A stretch of 64,000 bases of DNA from a virus (lineage: Duplodnaviria; Caudoviricetes). Below are positions 29,626 to 53,427 of the stretch, in pieces. The notes under the pieces were generated by a model. It had not been told where the DNA came from and did not search any database. It saw only the letters and a list, made by a program, of their open reading frames with translations. The position numbers and the translations under genes are program-made. Each line of letters starts with the position of its first letter. The stretch's first letter is position 1. The stretch lies in the IMG/VR virus record IMGVR_UViG_3300025030_000042; one strand, given 5' to 3'.

Positions 29626-30619
29626 ACCATTTGATTTCTTTTGTTGTATTCGTATTTTTTTGAACGGCATCAATAAAAATATTCTTAAACTCTTCTTCAT
29701 TGGAACATTCATAAAGTTCATTATTCATATTGAAAAGTTTCCATACTCCGACTTCTTTAAGAATGTCCATTTTATTGACGATTAAATGTGTTGCTCCGTT
29801 GATTTGAATGGCGCGAATGAGGGAAGGTAGATCCAAATAGTTACAGAATCTTTTTCTTCCTGTCGTTGCTCCGATTTCTTTTCCAACTACCTGTAATCGC
29901 TCAAGATTTGAATCATTCGTATTCTGGAATCCTATTTTGTTTCCCACATATGTATCATATGATTTACACACACCTACGATATTTCTAATCCATTGGTGCG
30001 GAATACCACTCAACAACGCTCCAGCGGCAGTGGTATGAGAACTTGTAACATAAGGATACTCTCCGATCGAAATATCAAGAAATGTTCCCTGTGCTCCCTC
30101 CATAAGAATCGTTTTTGATTTTCCATCGTGTATTTCATCATAAAAATCAACAAGATACGACTGAAGTTCTGGAACATCTTTTGCTTGTAATCCAATGCGA
30201 GCATATTTATCGCGATATGCCGGACCAATACCTTGTTTTGTTGTGCCGATCTTTGAATCTCGTTCGTCTTCCAAAATATTATCAAATGTAACAATGTGTG
30301 TGTTTCTTGAGATTTTCACCAAATCGTGAATGTTTTTGATGCCGGCATCATATAAAGAAGACATTTCTTCAAAAAACTTTACTGGATTTAAAACACATTC
30401 GGGACCGATAATGGATTTAATACCAAAGAATATTCCTGCCGGTAAATGGTGAAGAATGACTTTTTCGTCATTATGATACAGCGATCCACCTGAATTACCA
30501 CCGCCACTAAAACGTATTGAATGTGTATAATCTCCGTTTTTCAATAGATTGTAGCAAATTTTTTTCTTTCCGCAATCTCCCCATTTTAAATCTATAAGAA
30601 TATCAACGACTTGCGTCAT
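29603..30619 (-). CDS. purA: Adenylosuccinate synthetase homolog, short and divergent
   Basis: WGDCGK, MEGAQG, YPYVTSS, GATTGRKR, NKMD; atypical P-loop and the His41-equivalent is Gly. Confidence 0.85.
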   Translation of the reverse strand: MTQVVDILIDLKWGDCGKKKICYNLLKNGDYTHSIRFSGGGNSGGSLYHNDEKVILHHLPAGIFFGIKSIIGPECVLNPVKFFEEMSSLYDAGIKNIHDLVKISRNTHIVTFDNILEDERDSKIGTTKQGIGPAYRDKYARIGLQAKDVPELQSYLVDFYDEIHDGKSKTILMEGAQGTFLDISIGEYPYVTSSHTTAAGALLSGIPHQWIRNIVGVCKSYDTYVGNKIGFQNTNDSNLERLQVVGKEIGATTGRKRFCNYLDLPSLIRAIQINGATHLIVNKMDILKEVGVWKLFNMNNELYECSNEEEFKNIFIDAVQKNTNTTKEIKWSYNAAEI

Positions 30620-31324
30620 CTTAACACCTTTAGTTGCCAAATCTCTTTTGATAGTTCTTCATAATCTTCAAATTGCCCGAATAGTTTATCATCAAACATA
30701 AAACAAAAAATATCATATACTTCTTTATAAAAATCATCAAATGATTTGAACCTTTCAAAAGCCTCCAAAATAAGTTCTGCTTCTGGAAAGTATTCATCAG
30801 GCGCGCCCAAAGAAAACAACGCCATTGGATCGTGATGAGCAATAATGTCTGCGATCATTTTTGTTGTGATGATCATTTCATTTTCCCTTGGTTGTGGATA
30901 AAATGTGTTTTCCTTGGCACAAGGCCAAATATGAGTTGTATAAGGATTTTTATCATCCATTTTCGTTTTCTGTTTCTATTTTGGTCAACCTCGTATCTTC
31001 TTCTATCGATTCAATCCCTCGTTTGGTCCAAAAAACAATACTATATTTACCAAAAACGCCTTGATAATAAACTTATCTTTTTTAGAATGACACCATGCTC
31101 TTCCTTAGAAGTCCCCACGGAACTTTTTTAACTAAATCACCGACATTTAAATCTGGAATAGAACCCGTATGGGTATATGTATATGGAAGATTAAATACTC
31201 CTGCGGTATTGTTGCCGGTTATAGTTATAGTTCTAAACTCACTATTGTCGCCGGTAAGAAAATCCGATTGTATGTCTTCCAAGGCTTTTTTTAAAGAACA
31301 GGGTGCAATATCTTTCTTTTTCAT
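30616..31324 (-). CDS. Hypothetical ORFs (30616-~30880, unannotated short ORF ~30950-31080, 31082-31324)
   Basis: DPM.L...GAPDEY pattern; 31082-31324 ends with IPDLNVGDLV. Confidence 0.5.
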
Positions 31325-31330
31325 TTTATG

Positions 31331-32581
31331 TTATCCCAACAGTTTCCAAGTTCTTTTGATGGCGCCTCTCGTCGAAAAACTCCATTGAGGGCTCCAATCC
31401 GGCTTTATCATATATGGACGATTAACATATATTGTATCCTTATTTATATCAATCCCCCAACATCTTATTGATGTCTGTTTGGAGTTGCTATCAATAAGAT
31501 CGACAACATAATAATCTTTTCCTTTACCGGTTTTCTTTTGTATTACATTTCGTGGGATTGCCCACACACAATCGCAAAGTTCCGGATCATACTCGCTTAT
31601 CGGCGGTATACACATTTCTTCCAGTCTTCTCAACAACTTCTCTGACATTACCATATCGAACGGAAAAATGCCAGACAAAGTTGTGGCGTGCTCGATTTTT
31701 TGTTCCTCGGAGAAGTCCGGTTGACCACGATATTCCTCAATGTTTTCAAGGAGTTGTTTTTCGGTTTTAGGACGATTAAAAACAATAGAGCACCACATAT
31801 GTTTTGTATGCTCAAAACGATTGTCCATAATGGACTTTAATGATTCGGACTTCACAAGAACATCAAGAGATTTTTTGTTTAGTTTTTGATAGGAGATATT
31901 TTCATTAAACAGAAGTTCTTCAATGGTGTTGAATGGGCGATTGTTGATGATTTGTTCCATTGCTTTGTCACCCAAGCCTTTAAGTGATGTGAAAGGCTGG
32001 ACGAGCGTTTTATCGTCATTCGGATCAATCTCCCAGTTTGCGGTGGATTTATTAATATCGCAAGGAGAGATTGTAAAGTTTAAACTTTTCACAAGATTGA
32101 TGGCTTTTTCTTTTTTATCTTCTGATTCCGCGTCTAAATATGCCGAACTCCATTCAGCAGGGTAATAGTTAAGAAGATAAGCACAAGTATATGAAATGAT
32201 TGAATAAGAGATCGAATGCGAACGATTAAACGAATATTTTGAAAAGAAAATCATCTTTTGCCAAAGTTCTTCAGCATCAGAAAGTTTAATCTTTTTTTCC
32301 AAACACCCATCAATAAACTTCTGATATAATCTATTTTTAACCTCTTCTTCTTTTCCAGTACCCTTCTTTGTTAATACCTTACGAAGCAATTGTCCTTCGT
32401 CAAGCGAAATATCCTTGCCGAGTTTATGAGCAATTTCAGACAACTGTTCTTGAAAAATACAATTATGAACTAATATATTGTTGGCAAAAAAGTTATTATT
32501 TTTTTCTACCTCTATGTCATATACTTTTTTAGGAATTTCGTTCCTTGTAATAGATTTTATCTTTATTCTTTTGATTTCCAT
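31331..32581 (-). CDS. dnaE: DNA polymerase III alpha, C-terminal half, preceded by split-intein IntC (32462-32581)
   Basis: 40-aa IntC ending VYDIEVE..NNFFAN.ILVHN, then C+1 extein CIFQEQL, FNRSH and a C-terminal OB-like region. Confidence 0.93.
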   Translation of the reverse strand: MEIKRIKIKSITRNEIPKKVYDIEVEKNNNFFANNILVHNCIFQEQLSEIAHKLGKDISLDEGQLLRKVLTKKGTGKEEEVKNRLYQKFIDGCLEKKIKLSDAEELWQKMIFFSKYSFNRSHSISYSIISYTCAYLLNYYPAEWSSAYLDAESEDKKEKAINLVKSLNFTISPCDINKSTANWEIDPNDDKTLVQPFTSLKGLGDKAMEQIINNRPFNTIEELLFNENISYQKLNKKSLDVLVKSESLKSIMDNRFEHTKHMWCSIVFNRPKTEKQLLENIEEYRGQPDFSEEQKIEHATTLSGIFPFDMVMSEKLLRRLEEMCIPPISEYDPELCDCVWAIPRNVIQKKTGKGKDYYVVDLIDSNSKQTSIRCWGIDINKDTIYVNRPYMIKPDWSPQWSFSTRGAIKRTWKLLG

Positions 32582-33405
32582 TTTTCTATTTCTCCCTTTC
32601 TTAAATCTTCTAAAAATTCTGTTGATAAACTTCCATAAATTCTACAAATTTCATAATTATTTTTAATCGCTTTTTGTGTATAAAATTCATCAACATATTT
32701 TTGTTTTTTCATTCTTTGTGTTAAAACAAATTTATCTTCATTTCCGTGCCAATAATCACCATCATATTCTATAATAAGATGTTTGTTAATAATATAAAAA
32801 TCATATATATGATTAACATTATCAATTTTATACCCCGATATTATATCATCCTCACAAACATTTTTGAGTTTATCTTCAAAATCTATTTCTTCTTGAGATC
32901 TGTTAACATTTTTTTTCATATCGTGATAAATTAACATATGATGAGATAATCCAGATCTGTATTTAAAAATCTGATTACAAATTTTACAAATTATTTTTTT
33001 TTCTTTTCCGCAAGTTGCTTTGTGTGCTCGTAAAGAAGTGTTTGTAGAAAACTCTTTATTACAATTCTCACAATTAAAAACTCCAAATTGAATAATTTTA
33101 TCTCTAAATTTTGAAGCAGTTATTTTATCTTTCCACTCTTTAGATTGTTTTCTACCTTTATATCTTCTTTTTAATAGTTCATTTGAACATTTTTTACTAC
33201 AAGCAATATAACTCCTTACTCTACTCTCGGGAACTCGTTCTTTTTTTCCACACCTACGACAATAAACATCTACTCTGTTTTTTTCATATTTATTTTTTCT
33301 AAAAAGAGATAAACATTCCTTTGAACACGTTTTTGTTATTCTTTTTGATTGAACATTTTTAACAAATTCTTTCTCGCAAACCTCACAAACAAATTGTTTA
33401 TTCAT
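32563..33405 (-). mobile_element. Free-standing Vsr/DUF559-like homing endonuclease with multiple Zn fingers
   Basis: C-terminal YDFY...IIEYDGDYWHG; CxxC pairs and a C2H2-like CKIC...HMLIYH. Confidence 0.85.
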
Positions 33406-33437
33406 ATATCAAGATCCTCCTCTTGATATATAAGTAG
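33404..33437 (-). promoter_or_regulatory. Perfect 11-bp hairpin with the SD (GGAGGA) as loop and the start of the AUG in the stem; CTACTTA motif adjacent
   Basis: ATATATCAAGA-GGAGGA-TCTTGATATAT followed by G on the minus strand. Confidence 0.8.
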
Positions 33438-33446
33438 TTCAATTGT

Positions 33447-36065
33447 TTAATTAATTATTAAAATTTCATCTTCAATTGATAAATCTTTAACCATTTTTAA
33501 CCCATTTGAAGTATAAATTAAATGCTCTCCAGTTAATTCTATACATCCTTCTTCGGTTGAAATAGTAAAGGTTTCTTTATATCCCATAAATTTTCCATTT
33601 ATTATTTTATCTTCTTCGATATATTTTTTCGTTATATTATAAGAAGGTAATAAAACATCAAAAAGATTATTTTCTACTATATTTTCAATATTTATTTCTC
33701 CATCTTCTGTTAAAATTTTCACATCCCCCGCTAGACAATGACCAAAAGTGGATCCCAATATTTTTTCCAAAATCGGATGAATATATTTTATTGTATCTGG
33801 ATTTTCTTTTGAATTTAGATAAAGTTTATCAACGTTTGCCTGCAAAGTTCCAGGTCGCATGATACTTGTCACATCACTCAACTCATTTATTGAATATGGT
33901 TTAACTATTTTACAAAAGTTTTGAGCATTTTTTTCTGTAAACTGAAATATAGCAATCCAGTTTCCATTGTGAAAAGCATTTTCCCAAACATTTCTATCAT
34001 TTAGATTTAATTTATCTGGATGAAGATTTTCATTATAATACTTCCAAACATCTTGTATTTGAGGATCTGTATTATTATGATTTCGCTTTAAAATTATACG
34101 AATACATTGCTCAATAATCCGCAATGTTTTTAAACCAAGTAAATCAAATTTTAAAATTCCTCGGCGTTCCAAATGGCGAACTGCCTGCCCTTCCGTCCAC
34201 GGTGAGACGCACTTTCCTCCATTATTGATCAATGGCATCCATTTATTTAAATCTTCTCCAATACAAGTTCCTCCTGCGTGAACACCATGAGAACGAACCT
34301 GACCTTGAAGTGCTTCTACTCGTTTTTTAACTTCTGGATATTGTTCAAAAAACCCACGAAGCGTTTTACTGTATCTACAATATTCCTCAAAAGTTGGAAC
34401 ATAAACGCCAGCAGATTGATCGTGTTCTTTTTTCGCTAATGGTATTGCTTCGCTATCCATTTTACTCGTTACATAGTTCACTTCGCCAAATGGAATATCA
34501 TAATATTTACTAATATCTTTGATAAGCGATTTTAACTGAAGAGTATTAAAGTTTGAAATAAGAACAACGGAGTTTTCTCCCCATTCTTTAATCAAGTGTT
34601 CTTTTAGTTTTACTGGCTCGGAAAAATCTACGTCCAGATCAGGGAAGTCCACAGCATCTCTACGTAAAAAGCGTGAAAACTGAAGATTGTATTTAATCGG
34701 ATCGATTTGTGTTATATCTAATACATATGCCAATAAAGTTCCCGCCCCAGAACCTCTTGCTGGTCCAATCAAACAAATCTTTCTCGCCTCCTCCACAATC
34801 GCCTTCATTGTTACAAAGTATTTTGAAAACCCTCGATCCTTTATGACATATAACTCTTCCTTCAATCTCTCAACATATTCTTTTTTCTTGTTTAACCCCT
34901 TTTTCTTCAATCCCTCGATCGCCAACTTCGCCAAATAACCGTTTTCATCTTCTCCACTTAGAACGACAAAGTTCGGCAACCTCACCTTGTTATCCGGTTC
35001 AAACTCTTCAACGAGAACGAAAGCAATATCGTGTGTTCTCTCCAATGTCTCCCGAATGAAATCATCATCATAAGAATATCCACACATCTTGGAATATTTC
35101 TTATAATCTGACCATAATTGGTCGCCGTTTTTCGGATACAAAGTATATCCGATTTCCTCAAGATTTTCGGGTATTTCGTCGCTCAGCCAAGAGGGTTTTT
35201 CGCGATTTGATTTTCCAAGCCATCCGAGGCGCTTATAAAGTTCTCGATCCCGCCAGGCATCTGGTCTTGGATAATGCGCATCAACACAAGAAATAACTTT
35301 AAAATCATATTCTTTTGATAACTCAATAACGAGCGTATTTAATCTGTGTTGTTCTGGAATATTATTCCATTGTAACTCGCCGAAAAAATGTTCATTACCA
35401 AATATGGAAAGCATTTTTTCTATCGGAGTTCTCATAAGTTCATAGAGTTCCGAATGGGTTTTTTCTTTATTTTGCCAGATGACTTGTGCCAAAATTCCGC
35501 CAATACACCCACTTGTAGTTATTAAACCTTCACTGTAGGTTTTAAGATTTTCATAATCAATTCTGGGATATCTATAGAAGTTATCTCCTCTGTATGAAAG
35601 AGAAATAAGCTGGAATAGATTGTTTAGTCCCGTTTGATTTTTTACTAAAGTGGTTAAATGTCCTCTTCTGTTTATTTTATTTTTATGGTATCGGCGTAAA
35701 TCTTCTTCATCTTCAAGAGAGATGGCGGAATGTTCTTCGTCTTTGTCGTTTTTCTTTTCTTTCTTATCCGCTTTATATCTCTCGTATTCAACCTTCCATT
35801 CTTCAACGGAATCAATGAAATAAAGTTCACTTCCAAAAACTTGACGAAGATACTTTCCCTCTTTTTTCAGTTTTTCATATGCTTCAAGTTGATATGTAAA
35901 ACCATTCATATTACCGTGATCGGTCAGACAAAAAGCATCCAGACCGTTTTCCCAACAATAACGCATATGTTCTTCTGGATGACCCAAGGCATCGAACGGA
36001 GAGCCAATATCGCTGTGATGATGAAGATTTACGAACTTTATTGATGGTTTTTGTCGTTCGGACAT
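33447..36065 (-). CDS. dnaE: DNA polymerase III alpha, N-terminal half, ending in split-intein IntN (33447-33737)
   Basis: PHP FVNLHHHS, GPARGSGAG, DFPDLDVDF, KFDLLGL; 96-aa IntN CLAGDVKILT...IELTGEHLIYT. Confidence 0.93.
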   Translation of the reverse strand: MSERQKPSIKFVNLHHHSDIGSPFDALGHPEEHMRYCWENGLDAFCLTDHGNMNGFTYQLEAYEKLKKEGKYLRQVFGSELYFIDSVEEWKVEYERYKADKKEKKNDKDEEHSAISLEDEEDLRRYHKNKINRRGHLTTLVKNQTGLNNLFQLISLSYRGDNFYRYPRIDYENLKTYSEGLITTSGCIGGILAQVIWQNKEKTHSELYELMRTPIEKMLSIFGNEHFFGELQWNNIPEQHRLNTLVIELSKEYDFKVISCVDAHYPRPDAWRDRELYKRLGWLGKSNREKPSWLSDEIPENLEEIGYTLYPKNGDQLWSDYKKYSKMCGYSYDDDFIRETLERTHDIAFVLVEEFEPDNKVRLPNFVVLSGEDENGYLAKLAIEGLKKKGLNKKKEYVERLKEELYVIKDRGFSKYFVTMKAIVEEARKICLIGPARGSGAGTLLAYVLDITQIDPIKYNLQFSRFLRRDAVDFPDLDVDFSEPVKLKEHLIKEWGENSVVLISNFNTLQLKSLIKDISKYYDIPFGEVNYVTSKMDSEAIPLAKKEHDQSAGVYVPTFEEYCRYSKTLRGFFEQYPEVKKRVEALQGQVRSHGVHAGGTCIGEDLNKWMPLINNGGKCVSPWTEGQAVRHLERRGILKFDLLGLKTLRIIEQCIRIILKRNHNNTDPQIQDVWKYYNENLHPDKLNLNDRNVWENAFHNGNWIAIFQFTEKNAQNFCKIVKPYSINELSDVTSIMRPGTLQANVDKLYLNSKENPDTIKYIHPILEKILGSTFGHCLAGDVKILTEDGEINIENIVENNLFDVLLPSYNITKKYIEEDKIINGKFMGYKETFTISTEEGCIELTGEHLIYTSNGLKMVKDLSIEDEILIIN

Positions 36066-36256
36066 ATAACATACCTTTCTAATGCTGACACATAATATTT
36101 TGTGAAACCATTAGGATCTTTAAACCAATAAACACTATAAAGATCACTTAAATACTTCCGTTCTATTTTAATAATAACTCCAAGGCTTACTTCTCGTAGA
36201 TAGTTGATATGTTTTACAAGATCGCCAACCACAAGTTTATTCTGATTTATCTTCAT
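36038..36256 (-). CDS. KxGDLV-family ORF
   Basis: LVVGDLV...LGVII...YSVYWFK. Confidence 0.6.
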   Translation of the reverse strand: MKINQNKLVVGDLVKHINYLREVSLGVIIKIERKYLSDLYSVYWFKDPNGFTKYYVSALERYVICPNDKNHQ

Positions 36257-37250
36257 TCTTATTGATCCTGTAAATCGGATTCAATTTTCTTCTAATTGGA
36301 TTATATTTCCATTTGGTTTTATCACGATGATGCCGTTTACTCTCTATCGGCAGCAAAATAGGCTCACTTCTAATCATTTCTCTTTTCTCTTTTGATTCCA
36401 TATACTTACAATAGGTTTCCCAACTGTCAATGGTATAATACCACGGAATCTCTATTCGCACAATGTTTTCTTCGTCTTCAAACTGGAAAACATCATCCAG
36501 AGTATAAACATCTTTAACCACATATTTATCTGCCGATCTATGAATGGTAAAAACTTCGTGGACAACAGAACGATTTTTAACTTCTATTATATTGTTTGAA
36601 TATGTTTTCCGCGAAGCATTTAAAAGCTTTTTCTTTATTCTGACAACATCTTTGTATAGAATAATAAAACCCGTATAAAGTCCTTGTTCAACGGTTTGTC
36701 CCTTGTATGATAACAAAACCGTCTTATTATTTTTCATAACATTTCTACTGGAAAAATCAATCGTCTCTGAAGAATATACACCATAAGGAAATGAAACATA
36801 AAATCGTGTTGGAGATATCCACTTTGTTATATTACGACTAATGTTGTGGGCAACCGTTGCTCCATAAATAACACTCCAAGCAAAACTATTCATTGTTTTG
36901 TGTTGAAGAGTCTTTATTGGAATATAAAAGATCGGTATTTTTCTCTCATACTTTGCCGCCATTCTTATAGAAATGAACTTTCCCTTTTCTATTGACTCCG
37001 GATCTTTTAGCCATTCACCGATTCTGTATTTTAATAAAGGTTGAATGTCATCATTACAAATGATCCAAATCGTTTTACAACCAGCGCGAGCAAGTTCCAT
37101 CAGACATTTTTCAATGGCAACCAAATCTCTGCCAATCGGCATCATACATTCGGGCCACTCAAACCCAAAATCAAGCGCACCTCCAGCAACCGGAATGATC
37201 CCCGCCAAGTGATCGTGCGATGATCTTGCGCGTATTCTTTCTTCAGACAT
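36237..37250 (-). CDS. Sugar-phosphate nucleotidyltransferase-like protein (degenerate)
   Basis: AGIIPVAG...PECMMPIG...CKTIWIIC pattern; lacks GxGTR and the PK lysine. Confidence 0.55.
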   Translation of the reverse strand: MSEERIRARSSHDHLAGIIPVAGGALDFGFEWPECMMPIGRDLVAIEKCLMELARAGCKTIWIICNDDIQPLLKYRIGEWLKDPESIEKGKFISIRMAAKYERKIPIFYIPIKTLQHKTMNSFAWSVIYGATVAHNISRNITKWISPTRFYVSFPYGVYSSETIDFSSRNVMKNNKTVLLSYKGQTVEQGLYTGFIILYKDVVRIKKKLLNASRKTYSNNIIEVKNRSVVHEVFTIHRSADKYVVKDVYTLDDVFQFEDEENIVRIEIPWYYTIDSWETYCKYMESKEKREMIRSEPILLPIESKRHHRDKTKWKYNPIRRKLNPIYRINKNEDKSE

Positions 37251-41028: not shown

Positions 41029-44000
41029 TTATGAGCACTTACTATATCCACAATGTATACAAGAAACACACCCCTCTTTGTAGTTGAGAGCATCTTCTTG
41101 CTTACATTCTGGGCAAACTTTATCTCCCTCTGGTTTTTCTCCGTCTAAAATATATGTTTTTAACACTCTCGCAATACAGCGAGAAAACGAAAACATATCA
41201 CTATCTTTGTCCTTTTGAAGTTGTTCTACAATATAGTTTATCTTAGCTCCGTGTCGTAAACCCAAAGAAATCATTCGAGTTAATGCGGAATGATTTGGAT
41301 TATCAAAAATCTCAATAACATCTTTGATAACAATCTCGCTACCGTTCTCTCCAATTCTTAAATCATAAACATTTTTTTTAGTTTTATATTTTCGTTTTTC
41401 CAAAGATGCTTTTTTATAAGATTTGGGAACTTCAATATATTTCGATAACCCCCCAATAACTTCATATGGTTTATCTTCCATAAGACCAACAGCAATCGTC
41501 CAGTTTTCTCCTTTAAACTTCATTTGATGAATATCGCATAAAAGTTTATCTGGTCTTTTGGGGGCGTTATATTGAGGAAATATTTCATTTACATTTTGTT
41601 TTTTTTCATTATTTGCAATAAGGACTCCAGAGCGTGAACCGTCTACATAAACAGTAATACCCTTTAAACCCTTTTTCCACGCTCTTTTATACAAACTTCC
41701 AACAACTTCAGAAGTTGTTCCTTTTGGAAGATTTATTGTTGAAGAAATACTATGATCAATATTTTGCTGAATAACCGATTGTATATCAACTCTTTTTTCC
41801 CAATCTATTTGATCGCTTTCAATAAAATAATCTGGCATTTTATCTGTACCAAAGAGTGTTAAATATTCTTTAACATTATGATGATAAACTTTATATTCTT
41901 TCCACTTATCTCCAACATCATCTATAAAATCAGCCCTTTCGCTTTTTTCATTATGGTTTAGTTTCCTTCTACGAATATAATGATTTCTAAATACTGGCTC
42001 AATACCAGAACTTGTTTGGCTGATAACAGATACGGTGCCAGTAGGAGCATTAGTCAGTAAAGAAATATTTCTTCTACCTCTTTTTTGAATATCTTTTTGT
42101 ATTTTTTCAGGAAGTCTTTTAATGAAAAAATTATTTTTTTCTTTTTCCCAATCGAACAATGGAAAACTGCCCCTTTGTTCCGAAAGATTTACACTTTCTC
42201 CATAAGCATTATTTCTTAGTATTTCATATATTTTTCCAATAATATCTAATGATTCATTAGAATCATATTTCATTTCTAAACAGGCAATACAATCTGCTAA
42301 TCCGTGAGTTCCGAGTCCTATTCGTCTTCCAGTCTTACAAGCGTTTAAAAGTTTATTCCATAACACTTTTTCGCTTTCTTCATCTACAATATTCAATATT
42401 TTTTCAAGTTTTTCTATTTCCAAATCAACTAAATCATCTGAGAGTCGAGTAGCGATTTTAACAACTTCAGAAAATTTATTAAAATCAAAAAAAGCATCTT
42501 TGGAGAACTTATTAGATACAAAATGTTTTAGATTTATTGAAATCAATCGACAGGAATCATATTCTGACAGTGGAAGTTCAGAACAGTTTGAAACAAGTAG
42601 TCCACCAGTCCAATATGTATGTTCTTCATCGTCAACCGATATATCATAAACTTCTTGTTTCCCTAAAGATATTATTTCTTTTATTTCATAAGTTATTTTC
42701 TGCTTATTAATGTTAGATCTATATCCCAAACATATATCATCTAGTTTTTTTGATTTATATGGTTGTATAAACCCAATCATTTCTCTAAATTTTCTTCTAT
42801 CAACAGTTATATTTAAATCATAACTTTGACGACACTCATAAACTCCATTTGAAAACTCTACGCATTTTGATTTATTTGTAGTATAATAAGAAGAAATGCC
42901 AATAGAAGAAAGCATTTGTTGAACTTCTCTAATAATCCTGAAACTTGATGCTTTTAATGTAATGCGCGTAGAAACAACAGATCCATTTGCCGAATACAAA
43001 CCTCTTAAAAATCCAACAACTTTATTATAATCACCTTTTAAAAATCTTTCAGGAATATATCTATCGTAAGTTTTTGGAAGTTCTGTAGCTATTATAGTAG
43101 TTTTAACTTCCCATCCATAATCAAAAGCCTCCCTTCTATCTTTTAAAATTAAAGAAGATATTTCAGAAGTAAAATAATCTTGATCATCTTTTCCAATACA
43201 TAAATATACCGATAAATCATTAGATGCTTTATGAACAGTTCCGTCTCCAACAATCATTCCATCCATTATGTCTTGTATATTAATATTACTAGAAGATATC
43301 AGTCCGCCTTTACAAATATCAATAGCATAAGCATTTTTAACTTCTATTTTCTCTCCTTCGCACATTACACGATGATTTTCTGTTCCAATAAAACTTCCAG
43401 CAGTCGTTGAATAATCAAAAACTTCTTTAACTCCTGTTTTCCATTTTTTCGTTATTTTGGTCCACCGCTTCCCCGACCAAACAAAATCACCCTCGCTAAC
43501 TTCTCCGATCGTTGAAATACCATTTGAAGTTAAAACAGTTGCCCAAGAAGGCTGGCAGGGATTGACAGAGACGGATCTAAACGATTCATAACATTCCGCC
43601 GGAAGATTATTTCTTACATTGTCCCACATGATCAACCCGGGTTCTGCTGTATATGTAGCCGATTTTACAATCAAATCCCATAAAGTTTTTGCTTTTATTA
43701 TTTTTGAAACTTTAGGATTATTTGAATCAATCGGAAACTTAAGTTCAAAATTCCCATCCTTCTCCACTGCTTTCATAAACTCGTCAGATATTTTAACAGA
43801 GACATTTGCTCCCGTAGTTTTTTTTAAATCTTGTTTCATTACAACAAATTTTTCAACATCTGGATGTCTTACATCCATTGAAATCATTAAAGCTCCACGA
43901 CGATTATTTTGTCCAACCATTCTACAAACATATGAATAAAAATCAGAAAAACTCCAAGCTCCAGTAGTAGTTCCAGCAGAGTTATTCACTCCACAACCAT

Positions 44001-44424
44001 CTGGACGAAGAGTAGAAATATCTATTCCAACTCCACAACGACGCTTAAAAAGATTAGCAAGTTCCTTCCCTTTGTCAATAATAGAAGACATATTATCTTC
44101 TGGAGATGCGATTACAACACAGTTGCTTAATGATACATTTGCGTAATCATTTCCTATTCCATACATTGGACTACCTTGAGGAATAATATTTTTAAATCCC
44201 TTTAATAATTCATAAATTTCTTCTTCGCTCATAGAATTTGGATATTTTTTTTCTATTCTCGCAAATTCTTTTGCCAATCTTCTATGCATATCATCGGGAG
44301 TCTTTTCTAAAAGATTTCCTTCTTTATCTTTTAAAGCATATTTTTTAATCCACACATCTGTCGCAAGTTCATCGCCATTAAAATATTCAAGTGTAGATTT
44401 ATACACCTCTTCTTTGCTATACAT
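41029..44424 (-). CDS. nrdJ: Class II (B12-dependent) ribonucleotide reductase containing an intein
   Basis: GVGIDIS, RRGALM, NP-C/intein/C-SE, TNAPTGT, GIEP, KGITVYVDGSR, C-terminal Zn ribbon. Confidence 0.9.
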   Translation of the reverse strand: MYSKEEVYKSTLEYFNGDELATDVWIKKYALKDKEGNLLEKTPDDMHRRLAKEFARIEKKYPNSMSEEEIYELLKGFKNIIPQGSPMYGIGNDYANVSLSNCVVIASPEDNMSSIIDKGKELANLFKRRCGVGIDISTLRPDGCGVNNSAGTTTGAWSFSDFYSYVCRMVGQNNRRGALMISMDVRHPDVEKFVVMKQDLKKTTGANVSVKISDEFMKAVEKDGNFELKFPIDSNNPKVSKIIKAKTLWDLIVKSATYTAEPGLIMWDNVRNNLPAECYESFRSVSVNPCQPSWATVLTSNGISTIGEVSEGDFVWSGKRWTKITKKWKTGVKEVFDYSTTAGSFIGTENHRVMCEGEKIEVKNAYAIDICKGGLISSSNINIQDIMDGMIVGDGTVHKASNDLSVYLCIGKDDQDYFTSEISSLILKDRREAFDYGWEVKTTIIATELPKTYDRYIPERFLKGDYNKVVGFLRGLYSANGSVVSTRITLKASSFRIIREVQQMLSSIGISSYYTTNKSKCVEFSNGVYECRQSYDLNITVDRRKFREMIGFIQPYKSKKLDDICLGYRSNINKQKITYEIKEIISLGKQEVYDISVDDEEHTYWTGGLLVSNCSELPLSEYDSCRLISINLKHFVSNKFSKDAFFDFNKFSEVVKIATRLSDDLVDLEIEKLEKILNIVDEESEKVLWNKLLNACKTGRRIGLGTHGLADCIACLEMKYDSNESLDIIGKIYEILRNNAYGESVNLSEQRGSFPLFDWEKEKNNFFIKRLPEKIQKDIQKRGRRNISLLTNAPTGTVSVISQTSSGIEPVFRNHYIRRRKLNHNEKSERADFIDDVGDKWKEYKVYHHNVKEYLTLFGTDKMPDYFIESDQIDWEKRVDIQSVIQQNIDHSISSTINLPKGTTSEVVGSLYKRAWKKGLKGITVYVDGSRSGVLIANNEKKQNVNEIFPQYNAPKRPDKLLCDIHQMKFKGENWTIAVGLMEDKPYEVIGGLSKYIEVPKSYKKASLEKRKYKTKKNVYDLRIGENGSEIVIKDVIEIFDNPNHSALTRMISLGLRHGAKINYIVEQLQKDKDSDMFSFSRCIARVLKTYILDGEKPEGDKVCPECKQEDALNYKEGCVSCIHCGYSKCS
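42586..43557 (-). mobile_element. Cis intein (324 aa) with LAGLIDADG endonuclease in nrdJ
   Basis: Starts CQPSW and ends VYDISV..YWTGGLLVSN|C; internal DGMIVGDG and FLRGLYSANG motifs. Confidence 0.9.
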
Positions 44425-49581: not shown

Positions 49582-49585
49582 TTAA

Positions 49586-49657
49586 ATCCGAAGGTGGAAC
49601 TTGAATCCACATCTCTCCTCTACAATAAGGAGGCTTTACCAGTTAAGCTACTTCGGA
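49586..49657 (-). tRNA. tRNA-like gene, probable Thr(TGT), with atypical anticodon arm
   Basis: TCCGAAG/CTTCGGA acceptor, GCTT-AACTGGTA-AAGC D arm, CTCCT-TATTGTAG-AGGAG arm, GTGGA-TTCAAGT-TCCAC T arm. Confidence 0.7.
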
Positions 49658-49675
49658 TTTTATTCTATTATTTAG

Positions 49676-52067: not shown

Positions 52068-52262
52068 TTATTTATTTAACTTTTTCCAACCACCAAAACT
52101 TCTTTCTGACCACCAATAAAAACTTTTATTGTTAATAGAATACCAATACATTTTATATGAATGAGGAAGTTTTTTGATATTTATTTCAACTATTATTCCC
52201 AGGTTGTTTCCTATCGCAAACAAATCACCCACTTTATACTTTAACTTTTCGCATTTGTCCAT
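52068..52262 (-). CDS. KxGDL-family ORF
   Basis: KYKVGDLF...LGIIV...YKMYWY. Confidence 0.6.
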   Translation of the reverse strand: MDKCEKLKYKVGDLFAIGNNLGIIVEINIKKLPHSYKMYWYSINNKSFYWWSERSFGGWKKLNK

Positions 52263-53427
52263 AGTTTTTTCCCATTTTCATATTGACGACAAATCTTCCA
52301 AGCGGAGTATCTTTAAACTCTTCCAACAAAGACATTAACACACTTTCATCATCTCTGTGAAAATCCAGTATAACCGAATCAAATATCATAAATGATACAT
52401 ACGATTTTTTATTCTCAAGGATATTATTTAATCTGCTCGCCATTACATTTACAAGATCGGAAGTTACCGACTGGTTTAAATAACTCAAGGCGTGATTTCT
52501 ATCACATTGTATTTTTCGATCAAAGATAGTATTTATTTCATTTTTATTCCAATACATATCGATCATTTTCTGGCGGTTATATAATGTTTCAAGTTTTGAT
52601 TTGGCGTCCATATTATATAACCAAGAAAATGTCTCTTTTTTTATTTGCTCCCGCGTCATATCTGACTGTTTAAAAATATTGTTGCAGTTCCACTCGTGAA
52701 TATCATTTTGCGGTTGTTTCTCTCCCAGCATAGCAAGCATCACGCGGAGGTCGCAAGCATTATAATCAAACTCCACGAAGAAATCGTTATTTGGCAACAA
52801 AACCCGCCGTAGCTCGCGCCGTAGATTTAAAATAGGGAAACTGCCATTTTTTGTTGTGAGGCGCCCTGTGACCGACCCAAAAAGATTATATTCAACGTTG
52901 CTTGCCCCATTTTTCACTTTATTGTGTAAAGCAGAAATACCGGCGACATCAAAATTCTGAATCATAAAACTTTTATCAAAGTTTAAGTTTCTATATTTAA
53001 TATCCGCAATAAGTTTAGTTATATCCAACAATAGATCGTAGTTGTTTGGTCTTGAATATGTTTCAAAAACATATTTAGTTATATCCATTTTAACTTTACA
53101 ATATTGTGTCAATATTTCAACAGGAACAAGATCAAAAAAACATACATTATTGAGATTTACTTTCGCTTCAACAAAAGATCGATAATATGCTTTAAGTTTT
53201 TCTTTTATATTATCCCAATCGTTTTTCAAATATTCTGGGCATATTTCATCAATAGGTTGACCACAATATAAAAAAGCATACTCTATATTTTCTTTATGTT
53301 TTAACCATTGTGAATAGTTCCAAGTATGCGAAAGTTCGTTCGGTATCTTATCAAAATAAAGCATACCGCTTTCGTCATAAAAGCCAATACAGTTTTGTTT
53401 GTCGTCAAATGATTGAAAGAAAGTCAA
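52234..53427 (-). CDS. Miniature family A DNA polymerase
   Basis: TGRL, motif A FDYNACDLR, motif B REQIKKETFSWLY, NQS, motif C IFDS; 397 aa; TTG start. Confidence 0.75.
   Translation of the reverse strand: MTFFQSFDDKQNCIGFYDESGMLYFDKIPNELSHTWNYSQWLKHKENIEYAFLYCGQPIDEICPEYLKNDWDNIKEKLKAYYRSFVEAKVNLNNVCFFDLVPVEILTQYCKVKMDITKYVFETYSRPNNYDLLLDITKLIADIKYRNLNFDKSFMIQNFDVAGISALHNKVKNGASNVEYNLFGSVTGRLTTKNGSFPILNLRRELRRVLLPNNDFFVEFDYNACDLRVMLAMLGEKQPQNDIHEWNCNNIFKQSDMTREQIKKETFSWLYNMDAKSKLETLYNRQKMIDMYWNKNEINTIFDRKIQCDRNHALSYLNQSVTSDLVNVMASRLNNILENKKSYVSFMIFDSVILDFHRDDESVLMSLLEEFKDTPLGRFVVNMKMGKNYGQMRKVKV

Follow-up and report, generated by a model that had tools for sequence, protein, structure and literature searches.

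The stretch of DNA analysed here, hereafter the window, comprises 64,000 nucleotides (nt) of the IMG/VR virus record IMGVR_UViG_3300025030_000042 (Duplodnaviria; Caudoviricetes). On its minus strand it carries a dnaE gene, coding for the alpha subunit of DNA polymerase III (Pol III), which is divided by a split intein and a free-standing endonuclease gene. Between positions 31331 and 36065, three successive open reading frames (ORFs) of 872, 280 and 416 amino acids (aa), each in a different frame, encode the N-terminal part of DnaE followed by the N-terminal intein half (IntN), the endonuclease, and the C-terminal intein half (IntC) followed by the rest of DnaE. We estimate, with a probability of about 85%, that the two halves are trans-spliced into a DnaE of 1152 aa and that the cassette between the exteins is, or recently was, a homing element. 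The features of the locus are the following:

33447-36065, minus strand: N ORF, DnaE(1-776) followed by IntN, 872 aa (ORF list)
33738-36065, minus strand: dnaE N-extein, residues 1-776, ending in ...ILGSTFGH (Pfam PHP, DNA_pol3_alpha and DNA_pol3_finger; TIGR00594; matches to the Taq and Escherichia coli Pol III alpha structures)
33447-33737, minus strand: IntN, 96 aa and the stop codon at 33447-33449 (TIGR01445, conserved residues)
33402-33433, minus strand: hairpin in the 41-nt spacer, 33406-33446 (RNA folding)
32563-33405, minus strand: free-standing endonuclease gene, 280 aa (Pfam, homologues, fold comparison)
32592-32598, minus strand: Shine-Dalgarno sequence AAGGGAG of the IntC-DnaE-C ORF (read from the sequence)
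32563-32581, minus strand: overlap of the endonuclease and IntC ORFs, 19 nt (ORF coordinates)
32462-32581, minus strand: IntC, 40 aa (PF14890 positions 118-155; TIGR01443)
31331-32461, minus strand: dnaE C-extein, 376 aa and the stop codon, beginning with the +1 Cys (CIFQEQ...) (profile matches)
31331-32581, minus strand: C ORF, IntC (MEIKR...ILVHN), the Cys and DnaE-C, 416 aa (ORF list)

The two outer ORFs encode successive parts of one DnaE

The N-extein contains the PHP domain, the palm/NTPase region and most of the finger domain, and the C-extein the remainder of the finger domain, the helix-hairpin-helix (HhH) and the C-terminal domains. The profile matches break at the same place. The Pfam family DNA_pol3_finger is covered from position 14 to 113 in the N ORF and from 116 to 162, followed by HHH_6, in the C ORF; the NCBIfam model TIGR00594 from 1 to 673 and from 676 to 906; and the E. 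coli-type model NF004226 from 4 to 675 and from 678 to 895, respectively. This consecutive coverage identifies the N and C ORFs as successive parts of one DnaE.

The conceptual spliced DnaE, with the junction ...STFGH-CIFQEQ..., has 1152 aa and aligns over residues 1-1152 to the uninterrupted DnaE of the relative P0005 (1135 aa), with 54% identity and no gap where the exteins meet. HMMER alignments place this point at about residues 683/684 of E. coli DnaE and 740/741 of the Taq protein. The finger motif interrupted by the insertion is TYG-x↓x-x-(F/Y)QEQ (the arrow marks the break), which here takes the form TYG(F/H)↓(L→C)IFQEQ. In the C ORF, the FNRSH motif follows Cys41 at a distance of 77 aa, at residue 118.

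A first-pass annotation, made from the sequence, had described dnaE as two ORFs with a 96-aa IntN, a TGEH block B, a 40-aa IntC ending in HN and a +1 Cys, and each of these elements agrees with the ORFs and the profiles. The product of about 1150 aa and the distance of about 78 aa to FNRSH that it gave are close to the computed 1152 aa and the measured 77 aa, and the search with intein hidden Markov models that it proposed placed both halves above the curated cut-offs, as detailed below.

The flanking segments form a class-1 split intein

IntN (CLAGD...ILIIN) matches TIGR01445 with 29.2 bits, against a curated cut-off of 24.5, and residues 19-41 of the C ORF match TIGR01443 with 34.3 bits, against a cut-off of 15.6. 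The catalytic residues are Cys1 of block A and T69-G-E-H72 of block B in IntN, and Asp22 of block F and His39-Asn40 of block G in IntC, followed by the +1 Cys (C41). Across 13 IntN alleles with 32-50% identity to that of the window, Cys1 and the Thr and His of block B do not vary. The same holds for Asp22, Asn40 and the +1 Cys across 8 IntC alleles, whereas His39 is replaced by Ser in two of them.

The net charge is −11 for IntN and +5 for the first 20 residues of IntC, a pattern of acidic and basic halves known for Npu DnaE, IMPDH-1 and NrdJ-1 (Dassa et al. 2009, PMC2677866). Structure prediction of the IntN-IntC complex gave a score of 0.86, compared to 0.02 for the best control, with at least 94% of the contacts shared by three runs and a predicted local distance difference test value (pLDDT) of at least 80 for the partner. 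The mark applied to such predictions is reached by 51 of 78 solved complexes and by 2 of 108 mismatched pairs; since split-intein complexes have already been solved, passing it indicates likeness to them and is not a proof of binding.

Among solved inteins, the nearest are remote, namely the Spl DnaX mini-intein (E-value 3.5e-4) and a DnaB intein (0.0075), and no solved Npu DnaE, Ssp DnaE or gp41-1 intein chain matched IntN at E ≤ 1. A search for a contiguous, unsplit intein at this precise DnaE position gave none; the intein of the DnaE relative P0049 sits in the PHP domain, and that of P0141, of the HNH type, lies upstream in the finger domain. The locus thus displays the features of a class-1 split intein: a block A nucleophile, TxxH, blocks F and G, a +1 Cys, predicted docking of the halves and continuity of the exteins. 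On this sequence evidence, trans-splicing is most likely the route to a full-length DnaE.

The layout recurs in independent assemblies

The identical endonuclease protein was found on at least 23 contigs of different assemblies, flanked by the same neighbours of 872 and 416 aa, and ten of these contigs are 0.2-1 Mb long. The stretch is present in sequencing runs of 10 studies, mostly of groundwater and some of soil. A contig of 1637 nt from a different study covers positions 32267-33903 with 13 substitutions and no gaps, taking in parts of the C-extein, IntC, the whole endonuclease gene, IntN and parts of the N-extein, and further contigs span each junction. This recurrence in independent contigs excludes an assembly artefact, by which the first-pass annotation would have been overturned. 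The three-ORF arrangement is found as well in locus L001, with 876, 285 and 411 aa and exteins 50-54% identical to those of the window. The layout is therefore real and, judging from the sequence, very probably functional, with splicing predicted.

An explanation by RNA splicing was also considered. No Rfam family was detected in 30500-37000, hence no group I or group II intron, and the intron explanation was ruled out.

Cultured phage records contained no near-identical endonuclease and no match to it at the protein level, and their best DnaE matches were below 30% identity.

The endonuclease gene encodes zinc fingers and a Vsr-like domain

The 280-aa protein begins with Cys-rich repeats, which are followed by two C2H2 zinc fingers (residues 110-161) and by a Vsr-like, or EDxHD, domain (residues 167-280). 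This C-terminal domain contains IIEYDGDYWHGN, and its EDxHD residues are E213, D215, H220 and D238. Among 25 homologues, H220 is invariant, E213 and D215 are nearly so, and D238 is Asp or Glu in all but one, P0230, which is apparently chimeric. The homologues are 31-47% identical to the window protein; several carry DUF559 or Vsr Pfam domains, and several are named 'very-short-patch-repair endonuclease' by their sources.

The AlphaFold model of the endonuclease has a mean pLDDT of 86.9. The fold search with the full-length model was swamped by zinc-finger arrays, and the nuclease match became clear only in a second-look alignment, in which residues 167-280 were compared with E. coli Vsr (1cw0; Z 11.1, root-mean-square deviation 2.8, 111 residues aligned), a DUF559 protein (3hrl; Z 9.2) and the catalytic domain of I-Bth0305I (3r3p; Z 8.8, Foldseek probability 0.99-1.00). 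The fold matches together with the conserved residues place the protein in the family of Vsr-like (EDxHD) homing endonucleases; the assignment is made on sequence and modelled structure, and cleavage activity is predicted.

In IMG/VR, this zinc-finger/Vsr subfamily lies inside dnaE in all 17 of the 17 best loci, nearly always at the present junction. A homologous endonuclease (31% identity) was observed in locus L020 (1587-6575) between intein halves inserted after QEQ, with the junctions ..YQEQ↓C.. and ..VVHN↓CMQVAQQ, a few residues downstream of the window site; the same endonuclease lineage is thus tied to a neighbouring intein insertion point. We found no literature on C2H2 zinc fingers joined to Vsr homing endonucleases in a search that was incomplete and leaves their absence unproven. 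Neither Dassa et al. 2009 (PMC2677866) nor Taylor et al. 2011 (PMC3239194) mentions the zinc-finger module.

Putative control elements at the ORF boundaries

The 41 nt that separate the IntN stop codon from the endonuclease ATG fold into a 13-bp hairpin, whose loop contains GAGGAU and whose 3' arm holds the AUG and part of the Shine-Dalgarno sequence of the endonuclease gene. Its folding energy is −14.6 kcal/mol (z −5.4), a value equalled by none of 200 shuffled sequences. A significant hairpin occurs at the same place in 5 of the 7 relatives folded, with different stem sequences and often with the AUG in the 3' arm. In the other two, L018 and L012, no significant signal was obtained over the folded stretches, and L012 has a local stem of the same type. 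The Shine-Dalgarno sequence AAGGGAG lies 10 nt before the IntC ATG, inside the 3' end of the endonuclease gene. A scan for intrinsic terminators between the three ORFs on the minus strand found none; the promoter and terminator scan was otherwise uninformative in this AT-rich DNA.

An ACTTAT-like element was observed at or in the 5' arm of the hairpin in most loci (the window at 33406-33446, L001, L006, L007, L008, L012 and L019). By analogy with the late-promoter box located in hairpins of fractured genes (Dassa et al. 2009, PMC2677866), it may be promoter-like.

Distribution of the cassette among DnaE relatives

The GC content of the cassette is 23.6% in IntN, 24.6% in the endonuclease gene and 22.5% in IntC, compared to 36% in both exteins, and the same trend is seen in L001. 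A search of 1.8 billion representative proteins with IntN returned, as best matches, DnaE fragments in which the finger domain ends at Pfam positions 114-116 and is followed by IntN, and a word-indexed search added a single further protein. By their sequences, these best matches are alleles at the same DnaE site. In addition, about 100 of the closest relatives of the window DnaE (52-59% identity) have an empty site, ETYGF↓LIFQEQ.

We computed a tree of the DnaE N-extein with 48 rows (IQ-TREE quick search), in which every third intein-less relative was included and P0004, a duplicate of L001, was omitted. Given its well-supported branches, the presence or absence of the cassette must have changed at least 4 times on this tree. 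The window and L001 do not group together as sisters; the sister of L001, with a Shimodaira-Hasegawa-like approximate likelihood ratio test (SH-aLRT) support of 100, is the cassette-free P0067. L001 and P0067 are 84% identical in both exteins, and the sole difference at their junction is the change from Leu to Cys at position +1. Between the window and L001, identity is 45% for IntN, 48.5% for the endonuclease and 72% for IntC, to be set beside the 50-54% of the exteins. In the tree set, the nearest DnaE relative of the window is 59% identical.

The patchy spread on the DnaE tree suggests, as far as sequences can tell, that the cassette has moved by homing. Patchy spread, low GC content and empty sites together point to a pre-split mobile cassette that was acquired, not created, in this phage. 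The simplest reading of these sequence data is that the fracture arose outside this phage and that the cassette was inherited or acquired as a unit. The first-pass annotation had proposed an independent fracture event; this holds with respect to the cyanobacterial dnaE break, and does not hold as an origin within this phage, as a same-site cassette is present in many distant phage dnaE genes.

Two further observations concern sites without the cassette. P0049 (1314 aa), in addition to a contiguous mini-intein in its PHP domain, has a Cys at the +1 position of the window site with no intein there (GETYGF-CVFQEQ), and this Cys may, from the sequence, be the footprint of a precise cassette loss. 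A contig of run X15, compared with the window at 32435-33896, shares only short conserved extein patches with flanks below 30 nt and skips 1462 nt; it may represent a related cassette-free dnaE of the same sample, and so a natural homing target.

Proposed mechanism and alternative explanations

We propose that positions 32462-33737 are a selfish cassette of 1.3 kb, made of IntN, the endonuclease gene and IntC, which would have been inserted in the dnaE gene of a jumbo phage. The three ORFs would be co-transcribed, as no terminator lies between them, and two DnaE chains would be made, DnaE(1-776)-IntN and IntC-DnaE(777-1152); for the latter, ribosomes would use the Shine-Dalgarno sequence that lies inside the end of the endonuclease gene. 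IntN, which is acidic, would then associate with the basic N-terminus of IntC, the two halves folding as a single HINT domain, and class-1 trans-splicing would proceed by an N-S acyl shift at Cys1, transfer to the +1 Cys, cyclisation of Asn40 and an S-N shift. The endonuclease, with its two C2H2 zinc fingers recognising DNA and its Vsr-like EDxHD domain acting as nuclease, would cut the intein-less dnaE of co-infecting relatives, into which the whole cassette, including the +1 Cys codon, would be copied. The hairpin burying the start codon would hold down translation of the endonuclease. In this scheme we infer the splicing, the activity and target of the endonuclease and the regulatory role of the hairpin.

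Several points weigh against the proposal. The complex prediction may have passed through resemblance to solved split inteins, and the residue at −1 is His in the window, compared to Phe, Gly, Cys or Tyr in other alleles. Among the sequencing runs that contain the stretch there is no RNA run. The patchy distribution could partly come from repeated loss. Finally, a 397-aa ORF at 52234-53427 (minus strand) gives a partial match to family-A polymerases (Pfam DNA_pol_A, E-value 2.3e-9), so that DnaE may not be the sole polymerase of the phage.

The tight IntN-IntC interface that is predicted would equally suit a relic in which the intein halves have lost the ability to splice and serve just to keep the DnaE fragments together non-covalently. 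We consider such a relic quite improbable, because Cys1, Thr69, His72, Asp22, His39, Asn40 and the +1 Cys are all present, because the catalytic residues, save His39, do not vary across alleles that are otherwise only 32-50% identical, and because occupied alleles have Cys at +1 where empty alleles have Leu, a difference that matters only for splicing. Loss of homing, with splicing retained, is a more serious alternative, though still an unlikely one: the cassette would be fixed and vertically inherited, and the endonuclease inactive or repurposed. The window and L001 cassettes are indeed about as diverged as their exteins, and the analysis revealed no cassette-free allele closely related to the window phage; the 59%-identical DnaE is the nearest in the tree set. 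Nevertheless, the endonuclease ORF is intact, with its EDxHD residues conserved in the 25 homologues, the cassette is polymorphic for presence and absence at 84% extein identity (L001 and P0067), its GC content is low, and the tree requires the state changes given above.

The polymerase-like ORF at 52234-53427 also bears on the idea that dnaE is a pseudogene decaying after the insertion of a mobile element, the phage being replicated by another polymerase. This is very improbable: each half is an uninterrupted full-length frame, no DnaE domain is missing, the alignment to intact relatives is free of gaps, and the two-piece form is kept in many diverged phages. We give next to no credence to an assembly or sequencing artefact that would have broken up a contiguous intein with an internal endonuclease domain. 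We found no point in its support, and it is countered by the recurrence of the three-ORF layout on the contigs of separate assemblies and in runs of several studies, by the three frames, the stop codon, the 41-nt spacer and the separate ribosome-binding sites, and by the sharing of the architecture with relatives of about 50% identity. A spliced DnaE interrupted by a present or recent homing element remains the reading that we prefer.

Multi-piece DnaE in relatives

Some relatives of the window locus show further breaks in DnaE. In L010 (562-9112; IMGVR_UViG_3300015608_001846), DnaE consists of at least 5 ORFs, split by three Vsr-like endonuclease genes and one other ORF. One of these DnaE ORFs has only about 33 extein residues between IntC and IntN, and the break at reference position 661/668 shows no recognisable intein halves. 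DnaE is in four pieces in L006 and L019, and is also multiply broken in L012, L015 and L021.

P0137, P0123, P0124, P0125, P0133 and P0141 are middle fragments of DnaE, which start with an IntC, located at the PHP domain, before SRHAGG or at the PDIDxD motif, and end with an IntN of the window site. Such fragments reveal natural three-piece DnaE genes in several lineages. In L021 (3692-6516), an upstream DnaE piece with an IntN-like tail is followed by a zinc-finger/Vsr endonuclease, and the downstream piece apparently starts at MMQIAEF with no recognisable IntC; the intein may be degenerate there, or the IntC may have been missed. No report of a natural multi-piece DnaE was found in a literature search that was incomplete, so that the absence of such reports is unproven.

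A broader idea, which we hold tentatively and at somewhat below even odds, is that IntN, zinc-finger/Vsr nuclease and IntC form a family of mobile elements, each dedicated to one site, whose heavy colonisation of phage dnaE genes has left some relatives with a DnaE in five or more pieces, that the window pair assembles fast and is orthogonal to Npu, gp41-1 and NrdJ-1, and that the endonuclease is a natural zinc-finger nuclease. If so, a DnaE in at least 5 pieces, as in L010, would need several co-resident and mutually orthogonal split inteins, and such elements would naturally supply orthogonal sets for the ordered ligation of multiple fragments.

Other features of the window

The gene of a class II ribonucleotide reductase, NrdJ (41029-44424, minus strand), contains a contiguous intein with a LAGLIDADG domain; in its ORF, the Pfam family LAGLIDADG_3 is matched at residues 469-520 and the intein C-terminal motif at 591-614, with the NrdJ profile picking up again near residue 612. 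At 49585-49658 (minus strand), ARAGORN made a tRNA-like call with an undetermined two-base 'tg' anticodon, adjoining a tRNA-Asn.

Comparison with known systems

The fractured dnaE layout is not new. Of the 27 fractured loci that Dassa et al. 2009 (PMC2677866) found in ocean metagenomes, three are dnaE loci, DnaE-1, DnaE-2 and a third, at non-cyanobacterial sites. They have split inteins and free-standing endonucleases, one of which, that of DnaE-2, is Vsr-like and serves as the model Vsr-like protein. Their loci have spacers of 27-51 nt, hairpins in 15 of 16 cases and overlaps of 6-69 bp in 15. The window locus resembles them in the order, on one strand, of N-half with IntN, endonuclease, and IntC with C-half, and also in its 41-nt spacer, its hairpin at the start codon, its 19-nt overlap and its phage context. 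It differs in that no DnaE locus is among their five assemblies with both termini, whereas the present one is complete and lies in a phage genome of more than 200 kb. It comes from groundwater and soil instead of the ocean and has the C2H2 module; its insertion point may be one of their three. The first-pass annotation was thus right that the layout is known from marine metagenomes, but the phage DNA studied here is from groundwater and soil.

With the cyanobacterial Ssp and Npu DnaE inteins (PolIII-alpha site a, Novikova et al. 2016, PMC4760082), the locus has in common a naturally split class-1 intein that interrupts the finger domain, the residues Cys1 and Cys+1, the canonical split point (about 100 and about 36-40 aa), an acidic IntN and a basic IntC. 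In contrast to them, the insertion site is 77 aa upstream, and only an endonuclease gene separates the two halves, which in the cyanobacterial inteins are encoded at separate loci. The cyanobacterial models reflect this shift, as NF007079 pairs residues 41-121 of the C ORF with its N-half extein and NF005616 starts at residue 117. The intein is not inserted right before C-FNKSH and has no close sequence similarity to the Ssp and Npu inteins. The first-pass statement that the site differs from Ssp/Npu is therefore borne out, both by the position and by the lack of a sequence match to the solved Npu and Ssp chains. Novikova et al. 2016 (PMC4760082) report that the PolIII-alpha intein sites a-d and g crowd into a 75-residue stretch of the finger domain, so that the window site may coincide with one of them.

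The gp41-1, gp41-8, NrdJ-1 and IMPDH-1 inteins belong to the same class of locus, have halves of similar size and probably assemble by a similar electrostatic route; they reside in other host proteins, and no solved chain matched IntN at E ≤ 1. IntN and IntC are far from every structurally characterised intein, and from their sequences a new orthogonal split intein is plausible, which may enlarge the toolbox of such inteins.

The Vsr-like homing endonucleases, for which Taylor et al. 2011 (PMC3239194) introduced the name EDxHD, were first predicted by Dassa et al. 2009 (PMC2677866). The present endonuclease has in common with I-Bth0305I (PMC3239194, 3r3p) the Vsr-like C-terminal fold, the E/D/H/D residues and a separate N-terminal DNA-binding region. 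It is free-standing between intein halves, whereas I-Bth0305I is intron-encoded, and it differs further by its two C2H2 fingers and Cys-rich repeats and by an identity of only 15-18% to 3r3p. The combination of C2H2 fingers with a Vsr-like nuclease is of interest for gene-targeting reagents.

In the fractured genes that lack inteins (Aeh1 nrdA/mobE; the SbcD-like locus of Dassa et al. 2009), an endonuclease gene likewise splits an essential phage gene, with a hairpin and an overlap. The window locus differs from these by its intein halves, which are catalytically competent by their residues, and as complete halves flank the break, covalent rejoining of the DnaE fragments is to be expected.

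Overall, the first-pass annotation was right on the mechanism and overstated the novelty, the concept having been in the literature since 2009. What this locus adds is a complete dnaE example in a long phage genome, a widespread family of alleles at the same site, the zinc-finger module, and data on presence and absence suggestive of mobility. With intact halves, endonuclease and control hairpin, and with empty-site relatives for comparison, it could offer a model for how split inteins arise and spread, for whether a free-standing endonuclease and a split intein move jointly by homing, and for the tolerance of an essential enzyme to such interruption.

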